Of a stretch of DNA of 64,000 nucleotides, positions 2,322-24,271 are shown piece after piece; position 1 is the first letter of the stretch; every line of letters begins with the position of its first letter. Both the position numbers and the translations under genes were made by a program. The notes under the pieces were generated by a model. That model searched no databases. It was not told where the DNA came from and worked only from the letters and a program-made list of their open reading frames with translations. The DNA is from an uncultured Candidatus Saccharibacteria bacterium (GTDB lineage: Bacteria > Patescibacteriota > Saccharimonadia > Saccharimonadales > Saccharimonadaceae): assembly GCA_946222675.1 (NCBI GenBank), contig CAMIMA010000001.1:29807-93806 (forward strand). The letters run 5' to 3'.

Positions 2322-3863
2322 CTAGAACTCGTAACCAGTGTTAGGTGCACCGTACTTGCCATGCTTCTGGTTACCATCTGACTTTTGTTGGTCAGAGCCG
2401 GTTAGCTCGGTCGGCTTTAATTCATCTGAGTCAGCTGTATTTGGGTTGGCTGGATTAGCTGGATTATGGCCCTGCTTACTTGGATCAGTTTTGTCGGCTT
2501 GGTTGTCGTCCTGACCGTCTAGACCTAGGTCTAGGATTGGATTAGGGGCAGGATTATTTAAGGCGTCACGTACCTTGGCGACTAGCTGGTCAAGCGTCGA
2601 GGTCTTGTCGGCGCGAACATCAGCGGCAACCTTAGTTAAACCCTTATCCTCGGCAAACTTAGCTATCTGCTCCTTAAGCTGATTCCACTTCTCAGCATAC
2701 GGCTTTAACGCATTAGCATCGGCTAGCATCTTTTGCTGAAGTGGCGCCACCGCAGCATTAGCAGCCGTAGCCTCCGTAGTGGCTGTCCGAAGCGCCTGAA
2801 AATTGCCCCGCATCGTAGCTGCAGCCTGCGCAGGAGCTTCAAACGTCGCCTTAGCCGCAGTACAAGCAGCTTCCGCCGCCTTTTCCTTCTCGGCAAACTC
2901 CGTGGCTACCTTATCGTAAGCTTTCTTAGCTTGGTCGCGCTGAGCGGTGAGAGCAGCCTTATCTAGCTTACCATCAAGCACGGCATGGAAACGTTCTTCT
3001 ACCTTTTGCATAAACATCGCGAAGTCCTGATTGACCTTATTAACATGCACGTTTTCCTTCGAGCCAAAACTCTTGTAGGTTACGTAGGCAGCAGCATCAT
3101 CAGCATAACGCGTCTTGCCGCACACACTGAGAACTGGCTGACTATAGTTCCAACCTGAGGTTTTGGAATTATTAGACATACCCTTATCTTTTGCGCTACG
3201 CTCAGCACCAGCGGCGTATTTAATGGCGTCGTTGATATTATCAAGAACCTTGCTCGGCTTGCCGTTCACTACCTTCTTGCCACGGAAATACTCACTGTAA
3301 TTCTTCAAAGCACCTGCCTGCTTGTCGGTTAAAACTTTGGTGTCGATGCCATCCATGACATCAGCTAGTGCGACCAACTGAGCCTCCTTGTCTGCCGCTG
3401 GCTTTGGCTTGTCGGCAGCATTGATAAGACTGTTAAGAAAGGCTTCTTCAATGCGATTCTTAGTGTATCCCTTATCTTGGTCAAACTTCTCAAGCTCGTC
3501 AGCCGCCTTATATGTCGCCGAGCCTGGCGCGCGCAACTTCTCGGCTTGGTCTTGCGCATTATTATATGCAGCCATACTCTGCCTCAACGTTTCACCTGCA
3601 CTCTTAAGCTTTTGCGCAGCTTGCTTAGCAGCTGCATCGGCTTGGTTAAACGCAGTTTGCGACTTATCCGCCGCTTGCTTGTACTTGGCATAGTCATTAT
3701 ACACACTAGCCTGCTTGGCGAACTCATCTAGCGACTGCGGCGGCGTGTTCTCCTCTGCATTAGCTGACAGGCTACAAGGTAAGACCAGTGCTATACCTAG
3801 CGCCAACGTACCAAAAGCCATCACGCCAAGCGATATGACGTTCAAGTATTTGCGTTTACTCAT
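2322..3863 (-). CDS. Secreted Ala/Lys/Gln-rich surface protein of family A, with signal peptide MSKRKYLNVISLGVMAFGTLALG... and a conserved C-terminal ...HGKYGAPNTGYEF.
   Basis: 513 aa ORF. Its N-terminal signal and C-terminal roughly 100 aa are conserved with the 21989..23260 and 23507..24271 proteins. PANP repeats are encoded by degenerate GCTGGATTAGCTGG repeats. Confidence 0.75.
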   Translation of the reverse strand: MSKRKYLNVISLGVMAFGTLALGIALVLPCSLSANAEENTPPQSLDEFAKQASVYNDYAKYKQAADKSQTAFNQADAAAKQAAQKLKSAGETLRQSMAAYNNAQDQAEKLRAPGSATYKAADELEKFDQDKGYTKNRIEEAFLNSLINAADKPKPAADKEAQLVALADVMDGIDTKVLTDKQAGALKNYSEYFRGKKVVNGKPSKVLDNINDAIKYAAGAERSAKDKGMSNNSKTSGWNYSQPVLSVCGKTRYADDAAAYVTYKSFGSKENVHVNKVNQDFAMFMQKVEERFHAVLDGKLDKAALTAQRDQAKKAYDKVATEFAEKEKAAEAACTAAKATFEAPAQAAATMRGNFQALRTATTEATAANAAVAPLQQKMLADANALKPYAEKWNQLKEQIAKFAEDKGLTKVAADVRADKTSTLDQLVAKVRDALNNPAPNPILDLGLDGQDDNQADKTDPSKQGHNPANPANPNTADSDELKPTELTGSDQQKSDGNQKHGKYGAPNTGYEF

Positions 3864-3924
3864 CTACTCTCCTTCTTTAAACTAGCCTCTACATAAACAA
3901 GTGCTTGTAAATGTATGTGCTTGT

Positions 3925-3956
3925 ATTGTACCCCCCCCCCCGCGAGCTTACGTCAA
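3925..3956 (-). promoter_or_regulatory. Putative sigma70-type promoter of the 2322..3863 gene: TTGACG, a 20 nt spacer containing G11, then TACAAT.
   Basis: On the minus strand the sequence is TTGACGtaagctcgcGGGGGGGGGGGTACAAT, about 60 nt upstream of the start codon. With G8 the spacer would be the optimal 17 nt. Confidence 0.45.
3931..3941. repeat. Homopolymeric C11 tract (G11 on the coding strand) inside the promoter spacer.
   Basis: The run cccccccccc+c is read directly from the sequence. Confidence 0.95.
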
Positions 3957-4058
3957 GTACTTGACATAAGCTCAATGTACCAAAATTGCTACACATTATA
4001 TATAAATAAAGCCCAGCTTTAATGAAGATAGCTGGGCACGAGACGAGTTATAGCTGAG

Positions 4059-4274
4059 TTATTTTACCTTGTTGGCCTTAGTGGTAGACTGGTCGTACTG
4101 CGGTAATTTAAACTGGCCGACCTCGGTTTGGTCAAGCGCCTTGACGTCGTAGAGCAAGCCGGCGCGCACAGCGAGCTGGCCAACCACCTTGCGCTGCTCA
4201 CGCTCGCGCACTTGTCGCTCTAGTTCAGTCTGCGGCGCACGATTGGTTTTTTCGCTATTGTGGTTTTTCATCAT
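4059..4274 (-). CDS. Small hypothetical protein (71 aa), charged, with no recognisable domain.
   Basis: ORF only. A hairpin terminator (gcccagc...gctgggc) sits at 4008-4036. Confidence 0.3.
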   Translation of the reverse strand: MMKNHNSEKTNRAPQTELERQVREREQRKVVGQLAVRAGLLYDVKALDQTEVGQFKLPQYDQSTTKANKVK

Positions 4275-4416
4275 ATTTATACATTAGCACAAAAGACCGA
4301 AATTGTCAATAAGCCACCTCGATTGTCCTAAAATAGCCATAAACGCCTTGTAATGCTGCACAAAATTTGTTATTATCTTAAGCAGAATAACAATGAGGTG
4401 GGAGATTTAGATATAA

Positions 4417-5394
4417 ATGAGAAATAACGACCCTTTCAAACCGGCGCTGGCGAGGCCGCTGTCTGATAGTGACCTAGCGAACGACCCGCATCCAGATAAT
4501 TTTTTGGCTGGCAATGACGGCTTAGGCCGCCGCTTAAACCGCCGCATGACGATGGACGGCGTAATGCAGCCTGAGTTACCAGAGACACCAGCTGCGCCTG
4601 CTACTGTTGAGCAACCGCAGCCAGTCGAGCAACCAGCCCCAAGTGCGCCCGCGGCACCTGATTTATCTAATTTGGCTAACTTGCCAGATGCCCCAGCGAC
4701 ACCTGACTTTAGTGACCTTAATGCTGCGCCAAATCAAGACCCATTAAACAACCCGCTTGCCACGCCAAACGAAGCAAGCACGCCAAGTGCAAAAGTCTTG
4801 CCGCCAGAGGCCGATGCTGCCTCTGCTACTGGCGACCAGAGCACTAATCTCTTCGAACAAGCCGCGCAAGTCGCCGACAACCAGAAAAAACCACCGAAAC
4901 TCGCCACGCCGAAGCAAAAGCAAGTGACTATTTCATTACTTACTATCATCTTCTTCCTATTGTTCCTTGCGAGCACCGGCGTGGCCGTGTGGTTTGGCTA
5001 TGACAATAATAAGAAGTCCACTGCGCTGGCCGATGCCCAAGCCAAGCTTGCCCAGTCGAAAGACTACTTGAGCGACAAGACCAATACCAGTACCAAGACA
5101 TCAACTCAGTTTGACGCCTTACAGGCCAAGATTGCCGACCTCACCAAGAAGAATGACGAAGCCAAGCAGCAGCTTGACGAGAAGCAAAAGAACATCGACG
5201 ACCAGAACAAGAAGATCGCCGACCTCACCAAGCAGAACGGCGACTTCCAGAACAAGATTAATTCCGACAAGGCCATCTCTGATAACATGCATAGCCTCGC
5301 TGTCACACTCTGCGCCAGCAACCCAAGCATTGCCGGCTCCGCGCCTTGCGTCCAGCTCAACTCACAGCAGCAGCCACCACAACCTGGCCACTAG
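4417..5394 (+). CDS. Pro-rich membrane-anchored coiled-coil protein with the N-terminal motif MRNNDPF.
   Basis: The 325 aa ORF has a GAGG ribosome-binding site, a P/A-rich N-terminal region, one TM segment (ISLLTIIFFLLFLASTGVAVWF) and coiled-coil heptads (KIADLTKKNDEAKQQLDEKQKNIDDQNKKIADLTKQ). Confidence 0.6.
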   Translation: MRNNDPFKPALARPLSDSDLANDPHPDNFLAGNDGLGRRLNRRMTMDGVMQPELPETPAAPATVEQPQPVEQPAPSAPAAPDLSNLANLPDAPATPDFSDLNAAPNQDPLNNPLATPNEASTPSAKVLPPEADAASATGDQSTNLFEQAAQVADNQKKPPKLATPKQKQVTISLLTIIFFLLFLASTGVAVWFGYDNNKKSTALADAQAKLAQSKDYLSDKTNTSTKTSTQFDALQAKIADLTKKNDEAKQQLDEKQKNIDDQNKKIADLTKQNGDFQNKINSDKAISDNMHSLAVTLCASNPSIAGSAPCVQLNSQQQPPQPGH

Positions 5395-5482
5395 TCTAAC
5401 CACCCCGCCTCGGCGGGGTTTTATGGTACCGCGCACCGCGAGTTTTGACATTTTAAAATAAATGCGGTAAAATATAGTAGAT

Positions 5483-5836
5483 ATGAAGACAAGTATTCAT
5501 CCACAGGACTATCGCTTGGTAGTTTTTGAAGACGAAGCCGCACACTTCTCATTTTTGACGAAGTCAACCGCTCCATCAAACGAGACCACCAAGTGGGAGG
5601 ACGGCAACGAGTACCCGCTAATCAAGCTCCACATTTCTTCAGCGAGCCACCCATTCTTCACTGGTGAAGAGAAGATTATCGACACCGAAGGTCGTGTTGA
5701 TCGCTTTGCCGCCAAGATGAAGGCTGCAAAAGAACTTAAGGAAGCTCAAGCCAAGCGGGTTGCTGCTGCAAAGGCTGCCGCCAAGGCCAAAGCTGAGGCT
5801 GAGGCTGCCAAGGCTAAAGCTGAACTCGAAGCTTAG
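5483..5836 (+). CDS. rpmE: 50S ribosomal protein L31 (type B, lacking the CxxC pair) with an Ala/Lys-rich C-terminal tail.
   Basis: [15 protein letters not shown]...[12 protein letters not shown] matches the L31 signature. The C-terminus is an [22 protein letters not shown] extension. Confidence 0.8.
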
Positions 5837-5911
5837 TCTGTCCGTACCGCTACCCCTGACGTCGTTGGGGGTAGTTTTATTTTGCCCTCTCATATCTGGT
5901 ATAATAGTACT

Positions 5912-6982
5912 ATGGAAATTGCAATCAATCTTGATGAACTAAAGCGCGAGCAAGCCGAGCTCGAGCAATTTATGGCCGACCCGCAGGCCTTCTCTGACCC
6001 GCAGTACAGCAAAAAGGCCAAGCGGCTGGCGGAAATCAGCGACATTTTGGCGAAGGCCGAACGCCGCAATGAACTACATCACCAACTAGAAGAAGCCAAA
6101 GAGTTCGCCACCGGCAGCGACGAGCTAGCCGAGCTGGCGCAGGCTGAAATCCCTGACCTTGAGGCGCAATTAGTGCAAATCAACGACGCTATCAACACTT
6201 TGCTAGCCCCGCACGACCCGAACGACGACAAAAACGTCATTATGGAAATCCGCGCCGGTGCGGGTGGCGACGAAGCTTCGCTCTTCGCTAGCGAACTGCT
6301 TAAAATGTACCTCCGTTACGCCGAGACTCATCATCTCAAGACTGAAATTATGACCGAGAGCGCCAACGACGCCGGCGGCATTAAAGAGGTGGTCTTTAAG
6401 GTAACGGGCGACGAGCCATACGCCCAGCTCAAGTTTGAATCCGGCGTCCACCGCGTGCAACGCGTGCCCGTCACCGAGTCGCAGGGCCGCATCCACACCA
6501 GCACCGCCACTGTCGCCGTGCTACCTGAGGCCTCCGAAGCCGACATTGACATCGACCCGAAGGACCTCCGCATCGACATTTACCGTAGCTCCGGCAAGGG
6601 TGGTCAGGGTGTCAACACTACCGACTCCGCCGTGCGTATCACTTACTTGCCAACCGGCCTGATTGTCACCAACCAAGATGGCCGCTCGCAGATTGAGAAC
6701 AAAAAGAAGGCCATGGAAGTCTTGCGCTCGCGCTTGCTCCAGATTGAGATTGATAAGCAGAACGCCGCCGAAACCGCCGAGCGCCGCGCCTTGATTGGCT
6801 CGGGCGACCGTAGCGAAAAGATTCGCACTTACAACTTCCCGCAGGACCGCATCACCGACCACCGCATCAAGTACTCGCGCTCCAACGTGCCGGCCGCGAT
6901 GAATGGCGAAATTGACGACATCATCGAACACCTCCGCGCCCACGAACGCGAACTAAACTTGCAACAGGCGGCGATAAAATAG
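5912..6982 (+). CDS. prfA: Peptide chain release factor 1.
   Basis: It carries the GGQ motif ([23 protein letters not shown]) and an RF1-type PVT motif ([23 protein letters not shown]). The likely start is ATG 5912, immediately after TGGTATAAT (5897-5905), so the mRNA may be leaderless. Confidence 0.9.
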
Positions 6983-6990
6983 AGGTAGCA

Positions 6991-7824
6991 TTGGCGGACT
7001 TCACAATTGAACAACTTTTGATCACTGGCACGCAGCGCCTTGTGCTGCACCACATTGACTCGGCGCGGCTTGACGCCGAGCTTTTGCTTGCCTGCGCTAC
7101 CAAGCTCGACCGTACTGCCCTGCTCGCCCACGGCGACCAAGTGGTTGACGCCGCGACCGCCGCTATCTTCTTCGACCTCATTGCCCAGCGCGCGCGACAC
7201 ATTCCCGTCGCCTACCTCACCGGCCGCAAGGCATTTTATGGCCGCGACTTCACCGTCACGCCCGCCACGCTGATTCCGCGCCCCGAGAGTGAGGTTATGA
7301 TTGACACTCTAAAGCGGCTCTACCAACCTGACCAACACCACGCCTTACTAGACGTTGGCACCGGCTCGGGCTGCCTCGCCATCACGGCACAGCTTGAACT
7401 GCCCGACCTTAAGGTAACAGCCAGCGACATCAGCCAAGAAGCGCTGCCTGTCGCCGAGCTCAACGCCGGCCGCTACCACGTAGACAATAAAATTACCTTC
7501 GTCAACTCGAACTTATTTAACAATATCACGGGGCACTTCGACTTCATCCTTGCTAACCTGCCGTACCTTGACTACGACCGGCGCGCCGACTACTCGCCTG
7601 AGCTAGCGCACGAGCCGAACCTCGCGCTCTACACTTACGACCACGGCAACTGTCTAATGCTGGAGCTCGTCGCCGTCGCGCGCAACTATCTCACGCCGCA
7701 CGGCTACCTGATAATGGAAATGGAAACCCACCAGCTTAGCCAAGTGGCCGACCGAGCCATCAAAAGCGGGCTTGAGGTCGTCTCAAAGGCACCGTTCACC
7801 CTTGTCCTACAGCGCGCCGCTTAA
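6991..7824 (+). CDS. prmC: Release factor glutamine N5-methyltransferase PrmC/HemK.
   Basis: DVGTGSGCLAIT (SAM-binding) and NLPY motifs are present. The gene sits directly downstream of prfA, the classic operon arrangement. Confidence 0.85.
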   Translation: MADFTIEQLLITGTQRLVLHHIDSARLDAELLLACATKLDRTALLAHGDQVVDAATAAIFFDLIAQRARHIPVAYLTGRKAFYGRDFTVTPATLIPRPESEVMIDTLKRLYQPDQHHALLDVGTGSGCLAITAQLELPDLKVTASDISQEALPVAELNAGRYHVDNKITFVNSNLFNNITGHFDFILANLPYLDYDRRADYSPELAHEPNLALYTYDHGNCLMLELVAVARNYLTPHGYLIMEMETHQLSQVADRAIKSGLEVVSKAPFTLVLQRAA

Positions 7825-8015
7825 ACGAACCATGTGGAGAGTGTTTGCTCAATGTCAAGTGCTAAAAGTAAATAGAAATTTAGACACTGGCTACATATTG
7901 AAAACAATCTTATAACATGGTACTATGCATACATATAAATGTGAAACGATGTTGTTTATGCCAATATATTATAGCAAGTCCAACAATAAGAAACTACTAA
8001 ACGAGGTGACAAATA

Positions 8016-9101
8016 ATGGCTGATAATTCAAGCCTAAGTGCTGCTAGAAACGCAAAGAACGACGAGTTTTATACCCAATATAGTGATATAGAAACAGAAA
8101 TGAATGCCTATATTGAATATAATCCCTGGGTATTCAAAGATAAAACTATCCTTCTCCCCTGTGATGATCCAGAATGGTCAAATTTCACTAAATATTTTGC
8201 ATCAAATTTTACAAGGCTTGGTATAAAAAAGCTTATTTCAACTTCTTATGCACAAGGAGTAGCAAATAAACAGCCTACATTATTTGAACTCAAGTCACCT
8301 TTGTATAATCCACAGCAACATGATACGCACGGTAAACTTTTTACTCTAACTCGTGATACAGATGGCAATGGCACAGTTGATACTGACGACATTGAATTTA
8401 CCGGATATCTTGAAGGTGATGGCGATTTTAGAAGTAATGAAGTAAAGAAGCTTCGTGACGAGGCAGATATTATTATTACCAACCCACCCTTTTCACTCTT
8501 TAGAGAATTTTTAGCGTGGATTTTGGAAGCCGATAAACAGTTTGTAATTATAGGCAATAAAAATGTTATTACTTATAAAGATGTCTTCCCTCTGTTAAGC
8601 GATAATAAAATTTGGCTCGGACCTGGTTTCCCTGGTGGAAACGCGTTCTTTAAAATTTCTAATGATTCTATTAGAAATTTTGCTGCTGGTGTTTACGATG
8701 ATAATACAGGCTTAGTGAAATTTCGTAATGTTGGATGGTTCACCAATATTGACCACGGAAAGCGTCACGAGAACCTGATACTTGACACAATGGAACATAA
8801 TCTTAAATTCAACAAAAAATTGCAGAAAAAGCTTGAAAAAGACTATGGAAAACTCGAATACCCTCATTACGACAATTATGACGCGATTGAAGTTCCGTTT
8901 ACCGAATGCATTCCATCAGATTATGACGGTGTGATGGGTGTGCCTATTACGTTTATGGACAAATATAATCCAGACCAGTTCGATATCGTAGCGTTTAGAA
9001 AAGGTGAGGATGGCAAAGATCTAGTCTTCACGAGAGAGAGAGAGAGAGAGAGAGTACAACCATACTTTCGTATCCTTGTACAACATCGATTCCGGGAATG
9101 A
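8016..9101 (+). CDS. N6-adenine DNA methyltransferase (gamma-class, motif IV NPPF). Its reading frame is ended prematurely after a (GA)11 tract.
   Basis: IIITNPPFSLFREF matches a (D/N)PP(F/Y) catalytic motif and there is an AGGTG ribosome-binding site. The ORF runs ...VFTRERERERVQPYFRILVQHRFRE* with the repeat at 9032-9053. Confidence 0.7.
   Translation: MADNSSLSAARNAKNDEFYTQYSDIETEMNAYIEYNPWVFKDKTILLPCDDPEWSNFTKYFASNFTRLGIKKLISTSYAQGVANKQPTLFELKSPLYNPQQHDTHGKLFTLTRDTDGNGTVDTDDIEFTGYLEGDGDFRSNEVKKLRDEADIIITNPPFSLFREFLAWILEADKQFVIIGNKNVITYKDVFPLLSDNKIWLGPGFPGGNAFFKISNDSIRNFAAGVYDDNTGLVKFRNVGWFTNIDHGKRHENLILDTMEHNLKFNKKLQKKLEKDYGKLEYPHYDNYDAIEVPFTECIPSDYDGVMGVPITFMDKYNPDQFDIVAFRKGEDGKDLVFTRERERERVQPYFRILVQHRFRE
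9032..9053. repeat. Dinucleotide simple-sequence repeat (GA)11 inside the 3' end of the methyltransferase gene.
   Basis: The run gagagagagagagagagagaga(g) is read directly; it encodes RERERER. Confidence 0.95.
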
Positions 9102-9292
9102 TAAAGAACGCAGAAGGAAAGATAAATGGGCATCCTACTTACGCGAGAATAACAATCATGCGCAAAAGACGCCTGTAGAAATTATTTTTCCACTAGCAAC
9201 AAATTTACAAAATGGGCTTATAAATGACTGCACTATTAATGGAAAGAAAACTTATGTCAGAATACTAATAAGGAAAGCAGAGGTAACTAGTT

Positions 9293-10459
9293 ATGAAAAC
9301 AACACTTGTAACTGATTGGACAGTTGGAGATATTTGCAAAGGCTTTATTTACGATAAAAACGAAGATAAGGGCCTATTCGGTTTAGACGGTAAGCTTATT
9401 ATTCAGCCTGAGTACCAAAGAAATTATATTTATGGTGATGGTAAAAAAGATGTTGCTGTTGTCGATTCTCTGCTCAAAGGTTATCCTCTTGGCTTAATTT
9501 ATTTTGTGAAGAATAATGACGGAATGTATGAAGTATTAGATGGGCAGCAGCGTATTACATCATTCGCACGTTTTGTTAATCAATCGTGGCCTTTTGCCGT
9601 TGAACGTGATGGCAAACCAAAATATTTCAACAGTCTTTCCAAAGATGAGCAAGATTTAATTAGTAATACAAAGCTTACAATTTACGTATGCGAAGGAACG
9701 CCTTCAGAAATTGAAGCATGGTTTGAAACTATTAACATTGCCGGAGTTCCGCTAGTAAAACAAGAACTAAGAAATGCGGCTTATCATGGTAGTTTTGTAA
9801 CGCTTGCTAAGGAAGAATTTTCAAATACTTCTAATTCTAAGATGAATATGTGGCAAACATATGTGAAAGGCGATCCTAAACGTCAAGCAATTCTTGAAAC
9901 TGCTCTCGACTGGGTGAGTGATGGAAAAATTGACGATTATATGGCTCAACATAGAAACGATGCAGATATTAAACAGTTAAAAAACCACTTTGATACTGTA
10001 ATAGATTGGATAGATTCAATATTTGACTATACTGGAAATGAAATGTGTGGCCAAGAATGGGGCAAGCTGTACACTACGTATCACAAAAATGCCTATAGTA
10101 AGGCTCAGATTGCAGAACGAGTATCTGCGCTTTTAGAAGATTCTCAAGTTCAAAATAAACGTGGCGTTATCGAGTATGTGCTTGGTGGAGAATCTGATAA
10201 AACTCTTCTTAGCATACGAGTATTTGACGAGAAAACAAAAAAGCAAGTGTACGCTCGCCAAACGGAAGCCGCTAAGGAAAAAGATACATCGAATTGTCCG
10301 CTTTGCGCTTTGGGTAGTGACAACAACTCCAAACGTATCTATAAATTGAGCGAAATGGACGCGGACCATGTAACAGCTTGGAGCAAAGGTGGTGCGACAG
10401 ACGAGTCAAATTGCCAAATGCTTTGCAAGACTCATAATAGAGCTAAAGGCAACAAGTAA
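9293..10459 (+). CDS. DUF262 (ParB-like, DGQQR) domain protein with a C-terminal HNH nuclease motif; a putative restriction endonuclease partner of the adjacent methyltransferase.
   Basis: [10 protein letters not shown] is the DUF262/GmrSD N-terminal signature. The C-terminus CPLCA...[12 protein letters not shown]...[16 protein letters not shown] is an HNH motif. A GAGGT ribosome-binding site is present. Confidence 0.7.
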
Positions 10460-10683
10460 CAAATTATATCTTGGTTGCAATGTAAAACGGTGTGAAATGC
10501 GTTACAGCTTTTTTGATATTTCTATCGTTAAAAAGTGCGCACCCAACATTCATAGTATGCACTCAAAAAAGTGTAGTTATACTCGAAGTTCACTTAAGCC
10601 ATATAAACAAAACAACCTATTGATGGCAAACGATTGAACACAATTTTTATTATATAGTCCTTCAACCAGCGCCGCCACCTCTG

Positions 10684-15875: not shown

Positions 15876-17945
15876 CTACTGGCGGAAGTCACCCAGCACG
15901 ACGCGGAAGGAATGTGCTTTATCTACCTTACCATTATATGCACTAGCGTAGAATAAACTCAGACCGCCTTTATCGCCACCACGAGTAAACCATAAATTAT
16001 AATTCCATTCATTATGAGTATCATTATAGCATCCACCAGCGAGCACCCCAAACGCCATATTCCACATAGTGCCATGTTTAGGACCGCATGCTGATAAATA
16101 TGTGCCACGGTCGTACTCTACTTCATGTAGAGATTGACCACCACAAGTTTCCCAAGTGCATTCATAGCGATTTATGGATGCAAAATGATATAAATTGGTA
16201 TATGGCGGCTTAGTGTCAAATGCCGTGTTTTTGTACTCTGGATTCAATACCATCCGACTAGGGTCGTCGCTGTATGCCGCCGCCACAACCTCTCTGCCAC
16301 CACCGGCCATATCATAAATGCCAGTCGGGTTGTTTGTAGTGCTAGCTAACTGACCAGTTGTCCCATTGTATGCTAATTGTGAATCAAGTGAACTACAGGC
16401 TGATTGCGTACCTACTTCGCCGCCATACTTATTGTTACTAAATTTGCCATTCTTACCACGCATAGCGCCGCAACCAGTTATGCCATATTTTAATTCTATC
16501 TTAGGTATATTCTTCTTCTTATCTCTTCTTTGATAAAAACCGCTTTGATTATTAGGCTCAACCTTATCAAATCCAGCTCCATATTGACTTGCCGACAAAT
16601 AAGCCGCTGCACCCCAGTCATTGTTGTTTATGATGCGCGAGCTATAGTGCGCCAAGTTGTTATTATTCTGTGCCGCCAATAGCGTACTTCCAACTGTATT
16701 ACCCGAGTCAACCACACCAAACGACTTCGCTGCCGCAAATAACTCCTCTAGCTTACCATTCACGCCATCAGCATCACCAGAAAGGTATTTCTGATTTGGC
16801 AAAACAGTTGGCTGTTTAAGGTCACCAGTGGTCTGAAATTTCGCAAACCAAATACCGTTGAGCTCCTTGGTGCCGAAGGTAAAGGCTGGATGAGTCGCCC
16901 AAGTACCGGCATCGCTTGGCTTACCGTCAATATAATCACGGTTCAAGTCGCACTCAGTACGGTAGTCCACTCCCTTGCTTGCGCAAACTGCTGGTATGCG
17001 CTTTGGATCGGTTGCTTTCTCAAAATGAATGTTAAAGTTCTGCTCTTTAACCAATTTATCGGTATGGTCGCGACGCATCACCTCATAAGCATAGCGCGGG
17101 ATGTATACCCAGTGGCCCAAAATATCAGCCGGATCAACCACCACGCTCTTGTCTTTATACTTCGCGTAAGCCTCCTTCTTCACCGTCACGGCGTTAGCCC
17201 ACTGCTTATTGGCGTAATCATACCAGCCGCTATTGGCATCTTCTGGGTTGGCTACACTGGTCCACTGTGCATCAGTAGTACTACCCGTGTATTTTACTGG
17301 CACCATGTCTGGGTCGATGTCAATCTTACAGTCGTTATCCGCAGAACCCGCCCGACAAATAGACTTGCTCACCTCTGGTGGCTTCGGCGCTAGCTTTGGT
17401 GTTACTGTGTAAACTACATGTGTAATATACTCGCCGGCTGGTAAATTAGTACTGTCTATATTGGCAGCAAATGTGACCAGTTTGGTGCATTCGGTTACGC
17501 TCTTGCAGCCGTCTAGAGTATTCGGCGTGACGTTGGCAAGACGCAATGGAGCAGATTTGGCAGGAACCTGACTATATTTATCTGATGATTGGTCAAGCGA
17601 ATAGCCCCACTGATTAGCCGGTAGCGTAGACGGAGCACCTTTCTTCACGGCAGTAATTTTATAATTACTATTAGCCGAATTTACTAAATCCTGCTTGTCT
17701 GCAGCCATTGTAATACTAAAGCCATCGTGCGAGCTTGATTTAACAACAATGTTAGATGTAGCCTTATAAAGATCATCTTGTGGCGTCAGATTTGCCGCTT
17801 GTTCTACGGTAATGCTGATTGGGTTAGTCTGGTTAGATGGCTCTGCCGCATGCGCCGGCATCGCAAATAATCCCAGCGCAGCTACTAACGCCGCGCCAGT
17901 ATAGATTACCCCCCCCTGTGGCGTCACTAAATAATTTCGGCTCAT
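15876..17945 (-). CDS. Large secreted surface protein of family B: shared N-terminal domain plus an FGE-sulfatase-like C-terminal domain. A G8 tract lies in the signal-peptide coding region.
   Basis: The signal peptide is MSRNYLVTPQGGVIYTGAALVAALGLFAMPAHA. Blocks conserved with the 34037, 43021 and 45240 proteins include PVKYTGSTTDAQWTSVANPED, ADILGHWVYIPRYAYEVMRRD and HPAFTFGTKELNGIWFAKFQTTG. The C-terminus is RGG...AHSFRVVLG. Confidence 0.7.
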   Translation of the reverse strand: MSRNYLVTPQGGVIYTGAALVAALGLFAMPAHAAEPSNQTNPISITVEQAANLTPQDDLYKATSNIVVKSSSHDGFSITMAADKQDLVNSANSNYKITAVKKGAPSTLPANQWGYSLDQSSDKYSQVPAKSAPLRLANVTPNTLDGCKSVTECTKLVTFAANIDSTNLPAGEYITHVVYTVTPKLAPKPPEVSKSICRAGSADNDCKIDIDPDMVPVKYTGSTTDAQWTSVANPEDANSGWYDYANKQWANAVTVKKEAYAKYKDKSVVVDPADILGHWVYIPRYAYEVMRRDHTDKLVKEQNFNIHFEKATDPKRIPAVCASKGVDYRTECDLNRDYIDGKPSDAGTWATHPAFTFGTKELNGIWFAKFQTTGDLKQPTVLPNQKYLSGDADGVNGKLEELFAAAKSFGVVDSGNTVGSTLLAAQNNNNLAHYSSRIINNNDWGAAAYLSASQYGAGFDKVEPNNQSGFYQRRDKKKNIPKIELKYGITGCGAMRGKNGKFSNNKYGGEVGTQSACSSLDSQLAYNGTTGQLASTTNNPTGIYDMAGGGREVVAAAYSDDPSRMVLNPEYKNTAFDTKPPYTNLYHFASINRYECTWETCGGQSLHEVEYDRGTYLSACGPKHGTMWNMAFGVLAGGCYNDTHNEWNYNLWFTRGGDKGGLSLFYASAYNGKVDKAHSFRVVLGDFRQ
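17919..17926. repeat. Homopolymeric C8 (G8 on the coding strand), encoding the GG of TPQGGVI in the signal peptide of the 15876..17945 gene.
   Basis: Read directly; the tract is in frame in this state. Confidence 0.9.
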
Positions 17946-18247
17946 TAAACCCTCCTTCTTGTTGACTAGTTATCGGCTAGCTCTCGCACAATTTTCTTAC
18001 TTATTTAGTATAACACAAGCACAATGTCGTGGCAACTAGACGCGATGCCCTCATATGGCTTTGGCGATAGTATGGAACGGGCACTACCATCACCTGCCGT
18101 ATCTACGGCAAACTATTATATCTTTATGCCAATTTAGACTGACAATACCCACCCGAAAACAAGGGTGCCCAGCAGTTTCCTGCTGGGCGCATGATAGAAA
18201 GATTTCCGTGACGGGACCAGACTTGCCGGCCGGTATCACGGGGTGAG

Positions 18248-20488
18248 CTACTTATTCATTACTAGGTATGAGTAAAAGCTCACTGGCTTTTCGTTCTTTG
18301 CCTGACGCGCGGCATTGAACTGGTTAAACGCCTCAACACGCTGCTTGAGGTCATCTAGACTCTGCGCTTGCTCGGTCTCAGTAGCATGCTTGCCGTTCGC
18401 GACGTGATCATGACTCTGGTCATACTCAGCCGCCGCCATCTGGAAGACCATCTTCTGACCTTCTGGAGTCAACCGTACTGGTAACTGATTACCATTCTCG
18501 TCAGTGCGCGTGTCAAGCAACCCATAAAGGTCGCCAAACTGCTGCTGCATGTCCTCATTCGACACTGCATGGCCACTCTCCACACCCTTCTGGAAGCGCC
18601 AATCATTGATACTCTGCTGGAAACTGTCAATACTATCAAACGCACTATCAAACACCGCCTGCTCGCGCTCCATCTTCTGATCAAGCTCGTTATAAGCAGC
18701 TTCATGGTTAACCGCAAACTCCTGCGTTTCAGTGTTGTCGGCAGCATTGTCGGCGCCGGACTCAGCGCGGCGCGGCTCACGGTCATTGCCACCGCTCATG
18801 TACCAGCGTGCAAGCTTTGGATCAACCTTGCTCCAATCCATCTTATTGGCTCCTTGAGCGCAAAGCAAAGAATCCATATCCTTTCGCGTACTCTCAACAA
18901 ACTGCGTGGCATCCTCCTTAAAGCGCTTCATGTCATCGTCGCTTAACTCTACGCCGGCCTCCTTTAGCTCAGCCAAGGCGTCAGCCTCATTTAGCTTGCC
19001 ATCCTTATCGGTATTATTGCGAAACACAGAATCCATTCGATCTAGCCGCTGATATGCTTCATGCTGAGGGTTCTTCGGATCAGCCACTTCAGCTCGCCCC
19101 AATTCACGCAATTGCTTTGTTAGGTCAGCGCGCTGATTTCGCTCAATGTTATGACGAAGTCGCTCAGCCATACTGCTAATCTGCTCCTGTGTTAGCATAG
19201 CGTCCGCGACTTTTTCGCCCGCCATGGCTCGATTAATTAACGAGCGATTATATGAGTCAATGAGACCATTAAATTGCGCCTCAGTAATATTACCCGCATC
19301 AATTGCTTTATTAATTGGATCTAGGTCGCCAGATTGCGTTTCTTTCGCGGCCTCTGGCTTATTGCCACCTGCTTCAGGCTGAGCAGATTGCTCAGCATTG
19401 TCTGGCGTTTCAGTTGATGATTCAGTCGTAGATTCGCCACCATTGCTAGAGTTACCCCAAACATCCGGCGCACCATTAGCAATTGGCTTAAAGTTCTGCT
19501 GGTGATTTGCATTTTGACGAGCATAACTCATCTCCTTTATCATGGCGTTATACATAATACGCTGCAAATCTTCAGACGATAGCCGCAACTGGTCAACATC
19601 CAAGCCCTTACTGGCGTAACCTGTCACCATTTGATTGTAAGCCTCGATTGCTTGGCTCGCGCTAGTAACGTCATAAGTGGTAACTGCTGTCATGATCATC
19701 TCATGGGCACCACGCAGCTGTTCCATACCAGCCTTGCGCTCCTCTGGAGACAATGGAGTGTCCTTTTCTTTGGTCGACTCCGACTCAGCATCATTACCAG
19801 CCTCATTTCCCTTAGCGGAACTTTCGACGTCATTATCAGCATTCTCCGCTTTGGAAGTCTCAGACTCGGTAGCTTCTGGCTTGAATTCTGGTTCAGAATC
19901 AAAATCCGCATGCGGAATGTCACCCTCCGGCTGGAGCTTCAAGTCAGGCACCTTAAGATCTGGTACCTTAAAGCGATTAGGGTTATCGACCTCAACATCA
20001 GCGTCCGCCGAAGCCGGCTTAGAGCCACTAATATCCGGATCATCTTCTGATTTAGCCTCTTTTGCTTCATTGGCACGCTCCATTGACTTGGCTATACCCT
20101 TTGCTTCATCAATATCAGCCTCGCCGCGCGCATAACGGCGGAAGAAGTCCTCAGCCTCTGGCGGCAGCTTAACCTCCGGCTTGTCGTCAGTTGTAGCCTC
20201 ACCCTGCTCCTTGGATTCAGATTTTTTGTTAAAACGGCGGTCGCACCAGCTGGAGACACGGTCTTTTACATACCGCGCTGGGCGCGCCATCTTCTCGCCG
20301 ATAGCATGCATGGTGTTGTGTATGGCCTTGCCGGTGTTGTGCATAGCATTACCAATAGCCACCTTGGCCATGACAAGCTTGTTTTTTAGAGAATTCTTTT
20401 CTTTGCTCTGTTCTTGCTCTGCATTCATAAACTTCTCCCCTGCGCGGCGGCGGTCATCGGAGTAATAAGCCTTACCTTCTGGACTCAT
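18248..20488 (-). CDS. Large acidic low-complexity protein (746 aa) with no TM segment; function unknown.
   Basis: It is a long ORF with a D/E/K/N-rich composition. Its start overlaps the stop of the downstream small ORF (ATGA at 20485-20488), indicating an operon. Confidence 0.5.
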   Translation of the reverse strand: MSPEGKAYYSDDRRRAGEKFMNAEQEQSKEKNSLKNKLVMAKVAIGNAMHNTGKAIHNTMHAIGEKMARPARYVKDRVSSWCDRRFNKKSESKEQGEATTDDKPEVKLPPEAEDFFRRYARGEADIDEAKGIAKSMERANEAKEAKSEDDPDISGSKPASADADVEVDNPNRFKVPDLKVPDLKLQPEGDIPHADFDSEPEFKPEATESETSKAENADNDVESSAKGNEAGNDAESESTKEKDTPLSPEERKAGMEQLRGAHEMIMTAVTTYDVTSASQAIEAYNQMVTGYASKGLDVDQLRLSSEDLQRIMYNAMIKEMSYARQNANHQQNFKPIANGAPDVWGNSSNGGESTTESSTETPDNAEQSAQPEAGGNKPEAAKETQSGDLDPINKAIDAGNITEAQFNGLIDSYNRSLINRAMAGEKVADAMLTQEQISSMAERLRHNIERNQRADLTKQLRELGRAEVADPKNPQHEAYQRLDRMDSVFRNNTDKDGKLNEADALAELKEAGVELSDDDMKRFKEDATQFVESTRKDMDSLLCAQGANKMDWSKVDPKLARWYMSGGNDREPRRAESGADNAADNTETQEFAVNHEAAYNELDQKMEREQAVFDSAFDSIDSFQQSINDWRFQKGVESGHAVSNEDMQQQFGDLYGLLDTRTDENGNQLPVRLTPEGQKMVFQMAAAEYDQSHDHVANGKHATETEQAQSLDDLKQRVEAFNQFNAARQAKNEKPVSFYSYLVMNK

Positions 20489-21695: not shown

Positions 21696-21988
21696 TTGAT
21701 AAATCCTTTCGTTAAAATAAGGGCTATCGCCCTAGTTGCCTAGGTAGCGATAACCCTCTGCTATCTCACACTTCCCGTGTATGCTTATATATTAGCATAT
21801 ACTTAATATATTGTCAAGTAGTTTGCGCTTAATTTTTTAATTTGTCAAATAAAGCCCATAGAGGACAACAGTGGCAACAGATAAACCCACTTCTAACAGA
21901 GGTCACTAAACCATAACGGCACAAAACCAAAACCGCCACCCCATAATGGAGTAGCGGACAGTGTTTGCAAAGTTAGTTGTAGGCTAAA

Positions 21989-23260
21989 CTAGAACTCGTA
22001 GCCGGTGTTAGGTGCACCGTACTTACCATGCTTCTGGTCACCCTCTGGCTTTTGCTGGTTAGAGCCGGTTGGCTCGGTCGGCTTTAATTCATCTGAGTCA
22101 GCTGTATTTGGGTTGGCTGGATTAGCTGGTTCAGTCGGATTATCGCCCTGCTTGCTTGGATTAGTTTGGTCAGCTGGATTGGCTGGATTAGCTGGCTCGA
22201 CTGGATTGGCTCCCTGACCATTTGGATCTGGATTTGGCGCTGGAGCTGGGGCTGGCGTGGTATCCTTAGGTAACGCATTGCGCACCTTAGCGACCAGTTG
22301 CTCAAAAGTTGAGGTCTTGTCGGCACGAACATCAGCAGCAACCTTGGTTAGCTTCTTGCCCTCAGCAAACTTCGCTAAGCTCTCCTTAGCGGCAGCATAC
22401 GCCTCGTCAGCCTGTGTTGCAGCCGCACGGTCGGCGCTAAGCTGCTTTTCTGCCTGATTCGCCGCCTCGTTGCTCGTCTGGTACGCCTTGCTAGAAGCTT
22501 CTGCCTTGACTTTAGCCTCATTCGCGGTCTGCTCGGCAGCGTTTGATTCCTTGGCAGAATTAGCAGCCTTCGTCTTTGCATCATTATATGCGTTCTCAAG
22601 ACCCTTTATGGCTTGGTAGTCATCCATTAAGCCCATGATTGAGGTCTTTATGCTGTCTTTAGTAGCATCATCATTTAGCAGATCGCAGAATTTGTTAACC
22701 GCAGCACTAAACGACAACTCCTTACCGTTGTCGTCTAACTCCTTCACGTAATTATCCCAAACGTCGGCCTTGTCGGCCTTCACTTTGTTGTCCTTCTTAA
22801 CATTGTTAAGAGTGCCCTTGAGATCTTTACGCTTCTCTTTAGGTATGTTCTTCTTAAGAGCAGCGTTGCGCGTATCTTCATACTGCTTCTTAGCTTCATG
22901 CTCAGTTTTAGCATCATTATCTGCGTTAGTCTTGGCAGCCTTCGCCTTCTCGTCTGCGTCATTCTTAGCAGCAGCATCAGTCTGCTGAGTCTGCTTCTTC
23001 GCCTCCGCCTCTTGGCGCTTGGTCTGAGCATCTTTGGTAGAAGTCTCCACTTTAGCCGCAGCAGCCTGCGCCTTAGCGTAGGCTTCCTTACCGGTAGCCT
23101 CAATGGAGTCTAAATCGTCTTTATTTCCTACTACTGGCGTATTGCCGTCCGTAGCCTTTACCAACAGGGACATTGGCAAGATTGCCGTAGCACCCAAAGC
23201 TAATGTACCCAATGCAACCATGCCGGTTGATACTAGGCGTAGATATTTGCGCTTAGTCAT
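21989..23260 (-). CDS. Secreted surface protein of family A (paralog of 2322..3863) with C-terminal ...HGKYGAPNTGYEF.
   Basis: The signal peptide is MTKRKYLRLVSTGMVALGTLALG. The C-terminal 100 aa and the 3' flank match the 2322 gene almost identically at the DNA level; the central region differs. Confidence 0.75.
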   Translation of the reverse strand: MTKRKYLRLVSTGMVALGTLALGATAILPMSLLVKATDGNTPVVGNKDDLDSIEATGKEAYAKAQAAAAKVETSTKDAQTKRQEAEAKKQTQQTDAAAKNDADEKAKAAKTNADNDAKTEHEAKKQYEDTRNAALKKNIPKEKRKDLKGTLNNVKKDNKVKADKADVWDNYVKELDDNGKELSFSAAVNKFCDLLNDDATKDSIKTSIMGLMDDYQAIKGLENAYNDAKTKAANSAKESNAAEQTANEAKVKAEASSKAYQTSNEAANQAEKQLSADRAAATQADEAYAAAKESLAKFAEGKKLTKVAADVRADKTSTFEQLVAKVRNALPKDTTPAPAPAPNPDPNGQGANPVEPANPANPADQTNPSKQGDNPTEPANPANPNTADSDELKPTEPTGSNQQKPEGDQKHGKYGAPNTGYEF

Positions 23261-23506
23261 TTCATCCTTTCTTAATTAAATACTCTTCTATTATAACTTA
23301 TGGCTAATTAATTTCACAATACTTTTTGGGATAATTGCCGCCAAATGGTAAGAGCCAGAGCTACTCCATGTAGCCGTGTAGTCGCCAAACAACGCATATA
23401 TAGGGTAATTATAAGATTTGGAGCAATAAAACTAAAACCGTCACCCCGCATGGGAGTGACGGTCACACCAGCTGCTACTAGCGTAAGTAATTATATTCTA
23501 GCAAAA

Positions 23507-24271
23507 CTAGAATTCGTAACCGGTGTTAGGAGCACCAAACTTGTGGTGATTCTTGCGAGTCTTAGATTCCTTGGTTGACTTAGACTCTTTATTGGTCTTA
23601 GTCTCCTTGTTAGTCTTGACGTCCTTGTTTTCCTTGGTTTCCTTGGATTCCTTGTTAGGCTTAGCTTCATTAGCATTACCGCCAAGATCTTCAAGCTTAG
23701 TCTCAGGAAGACCCTTGCCCTTTTCAGCTGCATTTAGCATTGCAACTAGCGCATCAGCACTTGCATTGCTCTTGCGGATTTGCTTAGCTAAGAAGCCAAA
23801 ACCTTCCTTCTCGGCACGCTTAGCTAGAGCTTCCTTTAGTTCAGGTGACTTCAATGCTGCTTCGTAGGCGGCCTTAGCGTTGTTGTATGCAGTTTGTACC
23901 AACTTTGAAGTATTACGTTCAAACTTAGGGTCAAGCTTAGCTACCTTATCATAGTTAGCCTTAGCTGCATCATAAGCATTCTTCAAATCCTTTAGGGTTA
24001 CAGTCTTAAAGGCATTAACCTTAGCAGGAGTCAAACCCAAAAGATTCTCATAGCCGCGAAGGGCATCAAGAGCCTTATCGTAATCCTTCTTAGTCTTGGC
24101 TTCATTAACAGCCTTAACATACTTATCTACGCTAACCTGCTCCTTAGCATTTGGAGTGTGAGCAGCATTAGCGGCGCTAGCTACTGGTAGAACAGTAACC
24201 AAACCTAGAGCTAGAGTACCGAAAGCTACGACACCTGCAGATACAACGTTTAAGTAATTGCGCTTACTCAT
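23507..24271 (-). CDS. Secreted surface protein of family A (short paralog), Lys-rich, with C-terminal ...HHKFGAPNTGYEF.
   Basis: The signal peptide is MSKRNYLNVVSAGVVAFGTLALG. The C-terminus carries KETK/NKE repeats followed by the conserved terminal octapeptide. Confidence 0.7.
   Translation of the reverse strand: MSKRNYLNVVSAGVVAFGTLALGLVTVLPVASAANAAHTPNAKEQVSVDKYVKAVNEAKTKKDYDKALDALRGYENLLGLTPAKVNAFKTVTLKDLKNAYDAAKANYDKVAKLDPKFERNTSKLVQTAYNNAKAAYEAALKSPELKEALAKRAEKEGFGFLAKQIRKSNASADALVAMLNAAEKGKGLPETKLEDLGGNANEAKPNKESKETKENKDVKTNKETKTNKESKSTKESKTRKNHHKFGAPNTGYEF

Follow-up and report, generated by a model that had tools for sequence, protein, structure and literature searches.

Why do three divergent secreted proteins of a Saccharibacterium stop at exactly the same residue, right after a PNTG motif of sortase type and with no segment that would hold them in the membrane? 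The question arises in a 64,000-nucleotide stretch of genomic DNA, here called the window, from an uncultured Candidatus Saccharibacteria bacterium (contig CAMIMA010000001.1, positions 29,807 to 93,806). The original prediction of three paralogs with a common signal peptide and an identical C-terminal end was verified at the level of the ORFs and of their ends. The group, family A, consists of three minus-strand ORFs of 513, 423 and 254 aa, located where they had been placed; all begin with M(S/T)KR(K/N)YL..(I/V)S.G..A.GTLALG and finish with K(Y/F)GAPNTGYEF and a TAG stop codon. The genes and their parts are the following:

2322-3863, minus strand: family A gene 1, 513 aa, with signal peptide, helical region, Pro-rich linker, tail GAPNTGYEF and TAG
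3756-3863, minus strand: dedicated signal peptide of gene 1, MSKRKYLNVISLGVMAFGTLALG...ANA
21989-23260, minus strand: family A gene 2, 423 aa, with an AF2 model
23507-24271, minus strand: family A gene 3, 254 aa, including the AEKEGFGFLAKQIRK helical module
23153-23260, 24164-24271 and 25345-25449: signal peptides of the same type in genes 2, 3 and the anchor protein
2325-2351, minus strand: 27 nt coding for GAPNTGYEF in gene 1 (stop 2322-2324)
21992-22018, minus strand: 27 nt coding for GAPNTGYEF in gene 2 (stop 21989-21991)
23510-23536, minus strand: 27 nt coding for GAPNTGYEF in gene 3 (stop 23507-23509)
2261-2290, minus strand: terminator hairpin of gene 1, CGCCACTCC-ATTAA-GGGGTGGCG, then GTTTAGT, a weak T run
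21923-21957, minus strand: intrinsic terminator of gene 2
23426-23464, minus strand: intrinsic terminator of gene 3

In the AF2 model of the gene 2 product, residues 46-136 and 218-301 pair as an antiparallel coiled-coil hairpin that carries a small helical head (141-215); next come a further small module of helices (305-329) and a disordered Pro-rich linker (334-423) with the tail at its end. On the best reading, family A proteins are Sec-secreted surface coiled-coil stalks with the architecture of a wall-spanning surface fibril: a signal peptide, an antiparallel coiled coil of ~90 residues that bears a small head at its distal end, ~90 residues of proline-rich, disordered linker spanning the wall, a His/Lys-rich patch and a free (K)(F/Y)GAPNTGYEF-COOH. 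A protein identical to the gene 1 product is present on ENA contig L045. The helical module of gene 3 shares 39% identity over 98 aa with an LAKTG-anchored actinobacterium-like protein.

In the signal peptide, third positions vary in 21 of the first 23 codons and second positions in only 4, and it is common only to family A and the anchor protein encoded at 24565-25449. When ORFs were selected by this signal peptide alone, blind to the tail, every complete one ended either in GAPNTGYEF or in PNxGY plus a membrane anchor. YSIRK-type signal peptides co-occur with LPXTG signals, and the perfect co-occurrence of KR.YL..S.G..A.GTLA.G with a particular C-terminal signal resembles that arrangement; however, Pfam YSIRK_signal gives no match and the conserved residues are spaced otherwise.

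The tail, which had been called an octapeptide, counts nine residues. Its nucleotides had also been described as conserved, and the 18-mer ACTGGTTACGAGTTCTAG is exact only in the gene at 2322, whereas the other two copies carry 2 synonymous differences; within 3 mismatches it has 3 matches against 0.03 expected. In a scan of 185,579 species genomes, the exact nonapeptide was found in 20 copies, each immediately followed by a stop codon, in 5 Saccharibacteria species genomes and none elsewhere. All five belong to the TM7-H1 clade; the tail carriers are vaginal Saccharibacteria of TM7-H1 type and make up a small clade. The complete relatives found (~60 sequences) all end in (G/S)APNTGYEF with TAG or TAA. 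At 95% nucleotide identity, the 27-nt tail stands out as an island between flanks of 44-69%; it varies at third codon positions only, with all changes synonymous, and it is kept unchanged in a species whose anchor protein is just 43% identical. Neither a hydrophobic segment nor a charged tail was found at the family A C-termini, and no hidden hydrophobic extension lies downstream of their stops in any frame. The kind of LPXTG-type continuation that had been named as counter-evidence does occur in part, in distant homologues of the helical module, which bear LAKTG or LAHTG, a hydrophobic stretch and a charged tail on an actinobacterium-like contig, but in none of the related Saccharibacteria. 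The YEF end in all Saccharibacterial relatives and the synonymous-only changes bear out the prediction that the C-terminal end is a signal under selection, its stop position fixed, and not a truncation artefact. The hairpins said to be conserved are indeed present behind all three genes, but they have no special meaning. They lie at about 2268-2290, 21933-21957 and 23436-23464, 31-45 nt past the stop, and all combine a GC-rich stem with a T-rich run behind it; therefore they are ordinary intrinsic terminators, inherited along with the gene 3' end. The 3' ends of the genes at 2322 and 21989 share 86-89% nucleotide identity over ~200-240 nt, 3' UTR and terminator included.

Gene 1 stands ~18 kb away from a surface cluster. 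In all genomes examined, 2-4 family A genes come directly after the pilin-like, CscA-like and anchor genes of such a cluster, which in the window contains the following elements:

24565-25449, minus strand: anchor protein, 294 aa, with the family A signal peptide, at the CscD/PamR position
24697-24714, minus strand: SPNTGY motif of the anchor protein
25450-26451, minus strand: CscA-like protein, 333 aa, with signal peptide, beta-rich ectodomain, C-terminal membrane helix and basic tail
26608-29646, minus strand: four paralogous secreted proteins of 182-206 aa, pilin-like or small-WxL-like (26608-27228, 27462-28022, 28228-28788 and 29098-29646)

The assignment of this cluster to the Csc/WxL or Pam type depends on sub-threshold HMM matches; the four secreted paralogues match NCBIfam CPR_Pam_pilin_C only weakly (17.8 bits against a cutoff of 55), and 13 of 16 members of the CscA-like family have hits to Pfam WxLIP_PGBD (DUF916). 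In the Csc/WxL clusters of Firmicutes, CscA is a DUF916 protein with a membrane helix, CscB/C are WxL proteins and CscD is a small LPxTG protein, the latter at the position of our anchor protein (PMC1534035). Gene order and types match here, where several secreted beta proteins of ~180-200 aa are accompanied by a ~330-aa protein that combines a DUF916-like domain with a C-terminal membrane helix, and by another that bears a PxTG-like motif plus an anchor; each gene has its own signal peptide. However, the HMM matches are sub-threshold, Pfam WxL gives no match in the cluster, the phylum is Saccharibacteria, and appended free-ended paralogues like family A are not described for Csc clusters. The CPR-specific Pam pilus is also similar: its pilins are small and Ig-like, its accessory proteins are anchored in the membrane, and PamR, at the base, consists of a beta-sandwich and a C-terminal membrane helix (bioRxiv 10.64898/2026.03.03.709456). 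The mature N-terminus of the anchor protein (TQTVKLKV...) resembles those of the pilin-like proteins (QTVKLVV..., QTVSVDI...), as a donor strand would predict. On the other hand, the matches to CPR_Pam_pilin_C are weak, the pilins here are of single-domain size, and descriptions of Pam include no C-terminal AP..G.Y motif and no free-ended partners (bioRxiv 10.64898/2026.03.03.709456).

The anchor protein holds the counterpart of the tail. It consists of an Ig/FnIII-like sandwich, a disordered N/Q/D-rich stalk and a basic patch, and the end that had been predicted for it was found in the sequence: SPNTGY, 13 residues (FMINGQAYSKST), a 17-residue hydrophobic stretch (24610-24660) and a 14-residue basic tail, RKVYARHLLSKKQK. 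Comparison of HGRRGFRSPNTGYFM in the anchor protein with HHKFGAPNTGYEF in family A shows homology between the tail and the motif before the membrane helix, and on the best reading the tail is a shortened copy of that motif. The anchored motif occurs in the TM7-H1 clade as SPNTG, GPNAG, SPNAG, SPNSG or APNSG; at the same cluster position in divergent Saccharibacteria it is GAPNTGAYV, KAPNTGWYV, KAPNSGAYI or RAPSAGLYI, that is, AP[NS][TSA]G.Y, which adds APNTG and APSAG to the variants over all orthologues. Across lineages it follows hydrophobic-x-A-P-[NS]-[TSA]-G-(x)-Y-x-hydrophobic, so the putative sortase-cleaved Thr is not conserved; the middle positions accept T/S/A and N/S, as a turn would. 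In the model of the anchor protein, the motif opens a small beta-hairpin before the membrane helix, with low confidence around the motif. The cytoplasmic tails of the anchored versions are long, at 14-28 residues.

Our leading, still tentative, explanation is that the tail, which would derive from the motif of the anchor protein, serves with its free C-terminus as a peptide for docking or retention. We infer that a conserved cell-surface partner, with the membrane-anchored CscA-like protein or the pilus base as the best candidates, would bind the tail non-covalently, terminal carboxylate included. This explanation is favored because tail residues and stop are frozen in the ~60 sequences although the paralogues are old, as the altered third positions of the signal peptide indicate; a fixed free C-terminus matches reading by a binding pocket and not the needs of a sortase, and a constant free tail beside a drifting anchored motif fits a short peptide bearing all specificity alone. 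It is also favored because the homologous anchor motif is held at the same cluster position in divergent Saccharibacteria, because family A is tightly linked to the cluster and shares its signal peptide only with the anchor protein, because Csc/WxL components are reported to bind each other, the DUF916 protein binding WxL and LPxTG partners (PMC1534035, PMC9772566), and because of the wall-spanning fibril architecture and the fact that family A does not use the classical sortase signal that is available. As a counterpoint, a peptide of 9-11 residues would have limited affinity, gene 1 lies well apart from the cluster, the HMM matches behind the cluster assignments are sub-threshold, the anchor protein model has low confidence at the motif, and APNTG fits x-P-x-T-G with Thr invariant in all free-ended copies, for which a sortase is the simple explanation.

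A less probable but serious alternative is that a Saccharibacterial sortase cuts APNT|G, frees GYEF and attaches the stalk by a covalent bond to the wall, the pilus or the anchor protein; the motif that ancestrally lay beside the membrane would have been co-opted as a sortase site, so that P, T and G became frozen. The tail does sit at the end of a Sec-secreted surface protein behind a Pro-rich wall-spanning linker, where the distant homologues bear their LAKTG or LAHTG; in a neighbouring paralogue the motif is followed by a hydrophobic stretch and a basic tail; and a DUF11 protein just outside the window ends in IAKTG, a hydrophobic stretch and RSRH, a classical-type signal that implies a sortase in the organism. 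A sortase gene adjoins secY in a related Saccharibacterium, but none was found in the window, up to 10 kb beyond either end, or in related DNA L001-L012. However, of the three features that define an LPXTG signal, the tail lacks two, the hydrophobic segment and the charged tail. Position 1 is Ala in family A and A/S/G, not L/I, in the anchored orthologues; the invariant Y-E-F and stop after the Gly would be unexplained in a mere leaving group. The earlier description of PNTG as a sortase-type motif is therefore not established, given the variable Thr and the long cytoplasmic tails of the anchored orthologues and the different IAKTG signal of the same organism.

PDZ domains recognise hydrophobic-x-hydrophobic C-termini of the YxF type, and Y-E-F-COOH with its fixed stop could be a PDZ ligand or pro-peptide read by an S41 Ctp protease or an HtrA-type protease for maturation, quality control or regulated release. 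We consider this improbable. A candidate reader lies ~8 kb downstream on the same strand, here and in CP026537.1:

12609-13919: C-terminal processing protease (S41, CtpB-like, with PDZ domains)

This gene is only loosely linked to the cluster, and its neighbours, PcsB and a signal peptidase, are housekeeping surroundings; moreover, the conserved APNTG, the homology with the anchor protein and the common signal peptide would all be unaccounted for. DegS-type PDZ domains bind YxF-COOH and PapD-type chaperones bind the C-terminal strand of pilins. The tail may be likened to both by its aromatic-x-aromatic-COOH and fixed terminus, and the cluster includes chaperone-like Ig-fold proteins, but the tail is short, with Pro and Gly. 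Least probable is that the tail has no function of its own and is what remains of an anchor truncated recently, with gene conversion among the paralogues keeping it uniform, since, even if the similar 3' ends of genes 1 and 2 indicate that conversion of 3' modules does occur and the family is limited to a narrow clade, the peptide is constant while the adjoining sequence on both sides differs between 3' module types, it is intact beside the 43% identical anchor protein, and the stop codon has switched between TAG and TAA without shifting position.

With such a docking peptide, soluble paralogues that lack an anchor would still be kept on the cell, and the GAPNTGYEF tail is probably a surface-retention tag of a new kind.

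Three genes on the minus strand of the window encode the secreted proteins of family A, which, as the original prediction held, have a common signal peptide and an identical end.

Family A in the window
2322-3863, minus strand: family A protein of 513 aa
21989-23260, minus strand: family A protein of 423 aa
23507-24271, minus strand: family A protein of 254 aa
C-terminal peptide of family A: HHKFGAPNTGYEF

The three ORFs start with M(S/T)KR(K/N)YL..(I/V)S.G..A.GTLALG...A.A and end with ...K(Y/F)GAPNTGYEF followed by TAG. This tail, at first described as an octapeptide, has nine residues, and the 18-mer quoted as common to the three genes is exact in one copy and carries two synonymous differences in the other two. 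With the 423-aa protein as query, a homology search returned 35 proteins, of which all 32 that were complete at the C-terminus end in GAPNTGYEF. From 1.84 billion representative proteins a profile search retrieved only 17 matches in total, including seven further family A representatives ending in GAPNTGYEF and one ending in SAPNTGYEF. When 185,579 species genomes were scanned with a degenerate DNA pattern for the nonapeptide, the 20 matches fell in five Saccharibacteria genomes, each directly followed by a stop codon, TAG or TAA depending on the species. As the pattern scan required the peptide itself, ORFs were also picked by the signal peptide alone, a control without the tail in the query; all the complete ones end either in GAPNTGYEF or, in the neighbouring gene's family, in PNxGY plus a membrane anchor. 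The proposed check in related genomes thus came out in favor of conservation, since all Saccharibacterial members end at YEF. Over the 21 kb compared, the window and the CP026537.1 chromosome (Candidatus Saccharibacteria genomosp. TM7-H1 isolate E1, 723 kb) are 95.6% identical, and the tail appears to occur only in the TM7-H1 clade, together with the basic patch preceding it and the shared signal peptide.

Among distinct copies the 27 nt of the tail are 95% identical, against 69% in the 30 nt upstream and 44% in the 30 nt downstream, and the four variable positions within it are all third codon positions. In the first 23 codons of the signal peptide the third position varies in 21 and the second in only 4, which argues that the family A paralogues are old. 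Purifying selection acts on both the signal peptide and the tail. The saturation of the signal-peptide third positions also means that conversion does not maintain these codons, and with it falls the idea that the conserved ends serve as handles for antigenic-variation cassettes. Readthrough or recoding of TAG was discarded, given that TAA stands at the same position in other species, more stops follow downstream and a hydrophobic tail is encoded in none of the frames, and so was a phage origin, as the tail pattern was absent from the viral_contigs collection.

In the AlphaFold2 model of the 423-aa member, residues 46-333 are predicted with confidence (pLDDT mostly above 90). The model consists of an antiparallel coiled coil of two ~90-residue helices (46-136 and 218-301) with a small helical head at its far end (141-215) and a short helical module (305-329), followed by ~90 disordered Pro-rich residues ending in a His/Lys-rich patch and the tail. 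This is how a fibrillar surface protein that spans the wall and is attached by its C-terminus would be laid out. Foldseek searches of the PDB with this model returned only generic coiled coils (best E 0.036), and the signal peptide gave no match to the YSIRK_signal model at E <= 0.1. In Pfam and NCBIfam nothing scored above threshold for the tail or the proteins; the sole match near the motif, Rumino_NPXTG at E 0.026, fell on the anchored neighbour, protein 4. The literature searched had nothing relevant on PNTGY, APNTG or SPNTG, so that none of the three sources has a described signal that matches.

A conserved hairpin behind each gene had also been claimed. It is present: 31-45 nt past each family A stop lies a GC-rich stem of 9-12 bp and then a T-rich run. 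In related genomes, 22 of 26 distinct 3' contexts passed a strict stem-plus-T-run terminator test, while in the remaining four the stem is kept and either the T run is weaker or the stem has a mismatch. The stems covary (CCGCC/GGCGG, CCACC/GGTGG, CCGTC/GACGG) and Rfam gave no match at these sites, and hence we regard the hairpins as terminators and reject a special 3' RNA element. Part of their conservation is due to recent exchange of a 3' module between paralogues, because genes 2322 and 21989 share 86-89% nucleotide identity over about 200-240 nt at their 3' ends (window 2264-2491 versus 21930-22129), a stretch that runs from the last ~55 codons through the stop and the UTR to the terminator. 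Orthologues of the 423-aa gene elsewhere have a linker and UTR module of a different type (KKGHHKF), which likewise points to exchange of 3' modules among paralogues.

Directly upstream of family A, on the same strand, lies a cluster of pilin-like genes and two genes for membrane proteins.

Cluster upstream of family A
24565-25449, minus strand: protein 4, the anchor protein, 294 aa
25450-26451, minus strand: protein 5, CscA-like, 333 aa, with C-terminal membrane helix and basic tail
26608-29646, minus strand: four paralogous secreted, pilin-like proteins of 182-206 aa

The order of pilin-like genes, protein 5, protein 4 and two to four family A genes is kept in all related genomes examined, and four family A genes keep the GAPNTGYEF end in a species where the anchor protein shares only 43% identity with that of the window. 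In protein 5 the signal peptide is followed by a beta-rich ectodomain and a membrane helix. In its family, 13 of 16 members match Pfam WxLIP_PGBD (DUF916; best E 4.8e-6) and two match WxLIP_HBD, the window copy scoring 17.4 bits against a cutoff of 27.3; a PDB sequence search with it gave no match. Its size, helix and basic tail fit CscA, a protein of about 320-380 aa with DUF916 and a C-terminal membrane helix. The four small paralogues gave no match to Pfam WxL at E <= 0.1 and resemble WxL proteins only loosely (GW.. and G.Y...V.YT motifs). Of 17 pilin-like proteins, four matched the NCBIfam model CPR_Pam_pilin_C below threshold (best E 0.0028, with 17.8 bits where the cutoff is 55), and a PDB search with the pilin-like profile gave no significant match, with one at E 0.59. 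With its DUF916-like membrane protein, its small secreted beta proteins and its anchored protein with a PxTG-like motif, the cluster resembles in arrangement the Firmicutes Csc/WxL clusters, in which CscA stands with small WxL proteins and CscD, a small LPxTG protein (PMC1534035, PMC9772566). It resembles as well the CPR Pam pilus, with its pilins, membrane-anchored chaperones and membrane-anchored base protein PamR, in whose description WxL and DUF916 are unmentioned (bioRxiv 10.64898/2026.03.03.709456). Pilus-like clusters were seen at window 24565-29646 and in related loci L013, L016, L018, L020 and L022-L035, and in all lineages seen the base protein has a conserved motif, AP..G.Y...GG.A[YF]S, ahead of its membrane helix.

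Protein 4 has a signal peptide of the family A type and a mature N-terminus, TQTVKLKV..., that resembles those of the pilin-like proteins. Its model, of low confidence overall, shows an Ig/FnIII-like sandwich (pLDDT 70-84), a disordered stalk, a basic patch and a membrane helix preceded, again at low confidence, by a YFMI-NG-QAYS hairpin; Foldseek gave generic Ig-like matches, PapD-like domains among them at E about 5e-3. The C-terminal part reads SPNTGY-FMINGQAYSKST, a 17-residue hydrophobic stretch and RKVYARHLLSKKQK. Protein 4 had been taken for a carrier of a full LPXTG-type signal, and the SPNTGY, the hydrophobic stretch and the tail are indeed there, but the Thr varies in its orthologues and their cytoplasmic tails have 14-28 residues. 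Within the clade the anchored motif is SPNTG, GPNAG, SPNAG, SPNSG or APNSG, and in more distant Saccharibacteria GAPNTGAYV, KAPNTGWYV, KAPNSGAYI or RAPSAGLYI. The conserved pattern, hydrophobic-x-A-P-[NS]-[TSA]-G-(x)-Y-[VI]..[GA]G.A[YF]S, suggests a turn that links short strands ahead of a permanent membrane anchor more than it does a cleavage site. The family A tail copies the first part of this juxtamembrane motif in a portable form and is under selection.

A classical sorting signal is found in the same organism. Contig L045, 99.986% identical to window 1-13865 and reaching 7.7 kb past the left end of the window, encodes a surface protein with DUF11 repeats.

Surface protein left of the window
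L045 18417-20171, about 4.5-6.3 kb left of window position 1: DUF11-repeat surface protein, 584 aa

It ends in REIAKTG-ASDALSATAMLTILGAMVTAY-IRSRH, a textbook three-part signal with a hydrophobic stretch, and therefore the organism almost certainly encodes a sortase. A sortase was looked for and not found in the window, within 10 kb of its two ends and in related loci L001-L012. A sortase gene does directly follow secY in a related Saccharibacterium (PF04203, nearest to class F, below cutoff), and a query with it gave none in any other locus compared. That gene lies directly between secY and infA (L020 18404-20532, also L021), ~8 kb from the cluster of pilin-like genes, CscA-like gene and APNSG-type anchor of that genome.

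Outside the clade, profile searches matched family A only through a helical module, LAK.AE..G...AK.IR.SK (E 3.5e-8 to 4.6e-4). Over 98 aa the 254-aa paralogue shares 39% identity (pairwise E 2e-9) with P0097, a homologue on contig L049. This contig (ENA, 43.9% GC), which looks actinobacterial, carries P0097-type proteins together with a SpaA-type pilin and a sortase. The P0097-type proteins have the family A layout and end in LAKTG, a hydrophobic stretch and RKIRH, so that the free tail stands where distant homologues carry a classical sorting signal. Truncation of family A had been expected to show as relatives continuing through an LPXTG-type tail; the distant homologues do continue in this way, but they belong to another lineage, and the Saccharibacterial members all stop at YEF. 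An AEKEGF.F.AK.IRK helical module is common to family A and the proteins encoded at L049 7891-11498, the latter ending in LAKTG or LPKTG signals, and the style of the DUF11 protein's signal, [IL]AKTGA...R..RH, resembles the LAKTG...RKIRH tails on that contig. Gene exchange between TM7-H1 and a neighbour or host among the actinobacteria, possibly Gardnerella, or mimicry between the two, may account for the shared module.

We tentatively favor the reading that the tail is a free C-terminal docking or retention peptide. It would be read with its carboxylate by a conserved surface partner, for which the CscA-like protein or the pilus base would be the likeliest candidates. Docking would explain why the stop has a fixed position, why all tail residues stay frozen although the anchored motif drifts, why linkage with the cluster is tight, and why an available classical sorting signal is left unused.

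That family A proteins are instead sortase substrates lacking an anchor, one of the roles first suggested for the tail, seems rather unlikely. An x-Pro(Ala)-x-Thr-Gly pentapeptide does lie near the C-terminus, APNTG in all family A tails and SPNTG in protein 4, and APNTG fits x-P-x-T-G. None of the free-ended copies has another residue in place of the Thr, CscD proteins are of the LPxTG type, and both the sortase behind secY in the related Saccharibacterium and the IAKTG signal of the DUF11 protein speak indirectly for the presence of such an enzyme. However, the classical motif of the organism is IAKTG and not APNTG, the anchored motif has T, S or A at the position of the Thr across Saccharibacteria, and Y-E-F would be the leaving group, yet Y-E-F and the stop are invariant. 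Two of the three sequence features of the LPXTG class are missing from the tail: the stop comes three residues past the Gly, with the terminator 31-45 nt further and no hydrophobic tail encoded in any frame downstream, and the protein ends in ...GYEF with its basic patch upstream of the motif instead of a positively charged C-terminal tail.

It is unlikely, in our estimate, that the tail would be a minimal sorting signal without membrane anchor, on which a sortase-type transpeptidase acts once the protein is fully secreted. The protein would then end only three residues past the scissile Thr-Gly bond, and the enzyme would come from the epibiont itself or, a more radical option, from the actinobacterial host. 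If true, coiled-coil stalks would be covalently attached to the pilus or wall of the epibiont or to the host cell wall, and the module shared with the LAKTG-anchored proteins of L049 would be a borrowing from the host.

That the nearby Ctp protease reads the tail through its PDZ domain seems improbable, even though YEF-COOH is a free C-terminus of the hydrophobic-x-hydrophobic kind and an S41 peptidase with PDZ domains, recognized via orthologous annotated loci, is encoded at window 12609-13919. A functionless relic is very improbable for a tail that varies only at third codon positions. The remaining share of probability we leave to an explanation yet to be conceived.

Several other features were observed in the window, which has 49% GC, unlinked 16S (47204-48673) and 23S (30303-33281) rRNA genes, tmRNA, RNase P RNA and type IV secretion genes. 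Relative to CP026537.1, it has an insertion of ~690 bp at 13846-14532, between a PcsB-like CHAP hydrolase (14573-15772) and the Ctp peptidase (12609-13919), with two small overlapping ORFs (13964-14236 and 14217-14531) of toxin-antitoxin-like look. A second family of large secreted proteins (579-736 aa) is encoded at 15876-17945, 34037-36226, 43021-45231 and 45240-46979, and at 12450-18711 of related locus L047; several of its genes lie between the unlinked 16S and 23S genes, one member weakly matches FGE-sulfatase-like proteins, and the C-termini are conserved, of the ...AFRV.LAP... or ...FRVVLGDFRQ type. Another conserved C-terminus, ...DAKKVADTLAEA(I/L)GSPCY, is common to the paralogues encoded at 36982-38226 and 38625-39707. 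At 8016-10459, an EcoRI-type methylase gene (8016-9101) adjoins that of a GmrSD_N/HNH protein (9293-10459), the Pfam assignments being taken from the identical contig L045.

The tail would best be filed among the C-terminal surface-sorting or anchoring signals, of a narrow and clinically interesting clade only. TM7-H1 is an uncultured, ultrasmall epibiont for which, to our knowledge, neither the host nor the means of attachment is known. It is a vaginal Saccharibacterium and one of the taxa associated with preterm birth (PMC6750801). Family A provides it with lineage-specific, multi-copy and fast-diversifying surface stalks, and these, whose genes lie beside a pilus-like cluster, are therefore prime candidates for host contact. 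The analysis also connects the recently described CPR Pam pilus with the Firmicutes Csc/WxL clusters, and points to the conserved AP..G.Y motif ahead of the membrane helix of the base protein. If the proposal is true, a nine-residue, anchor-free retention tag would be a new entry among the surface display signals of the Gram-positive type; it would give a simple sequence handle with which to list the surface proteins of these genomes, and would offer a concrete route to finding the receptor.
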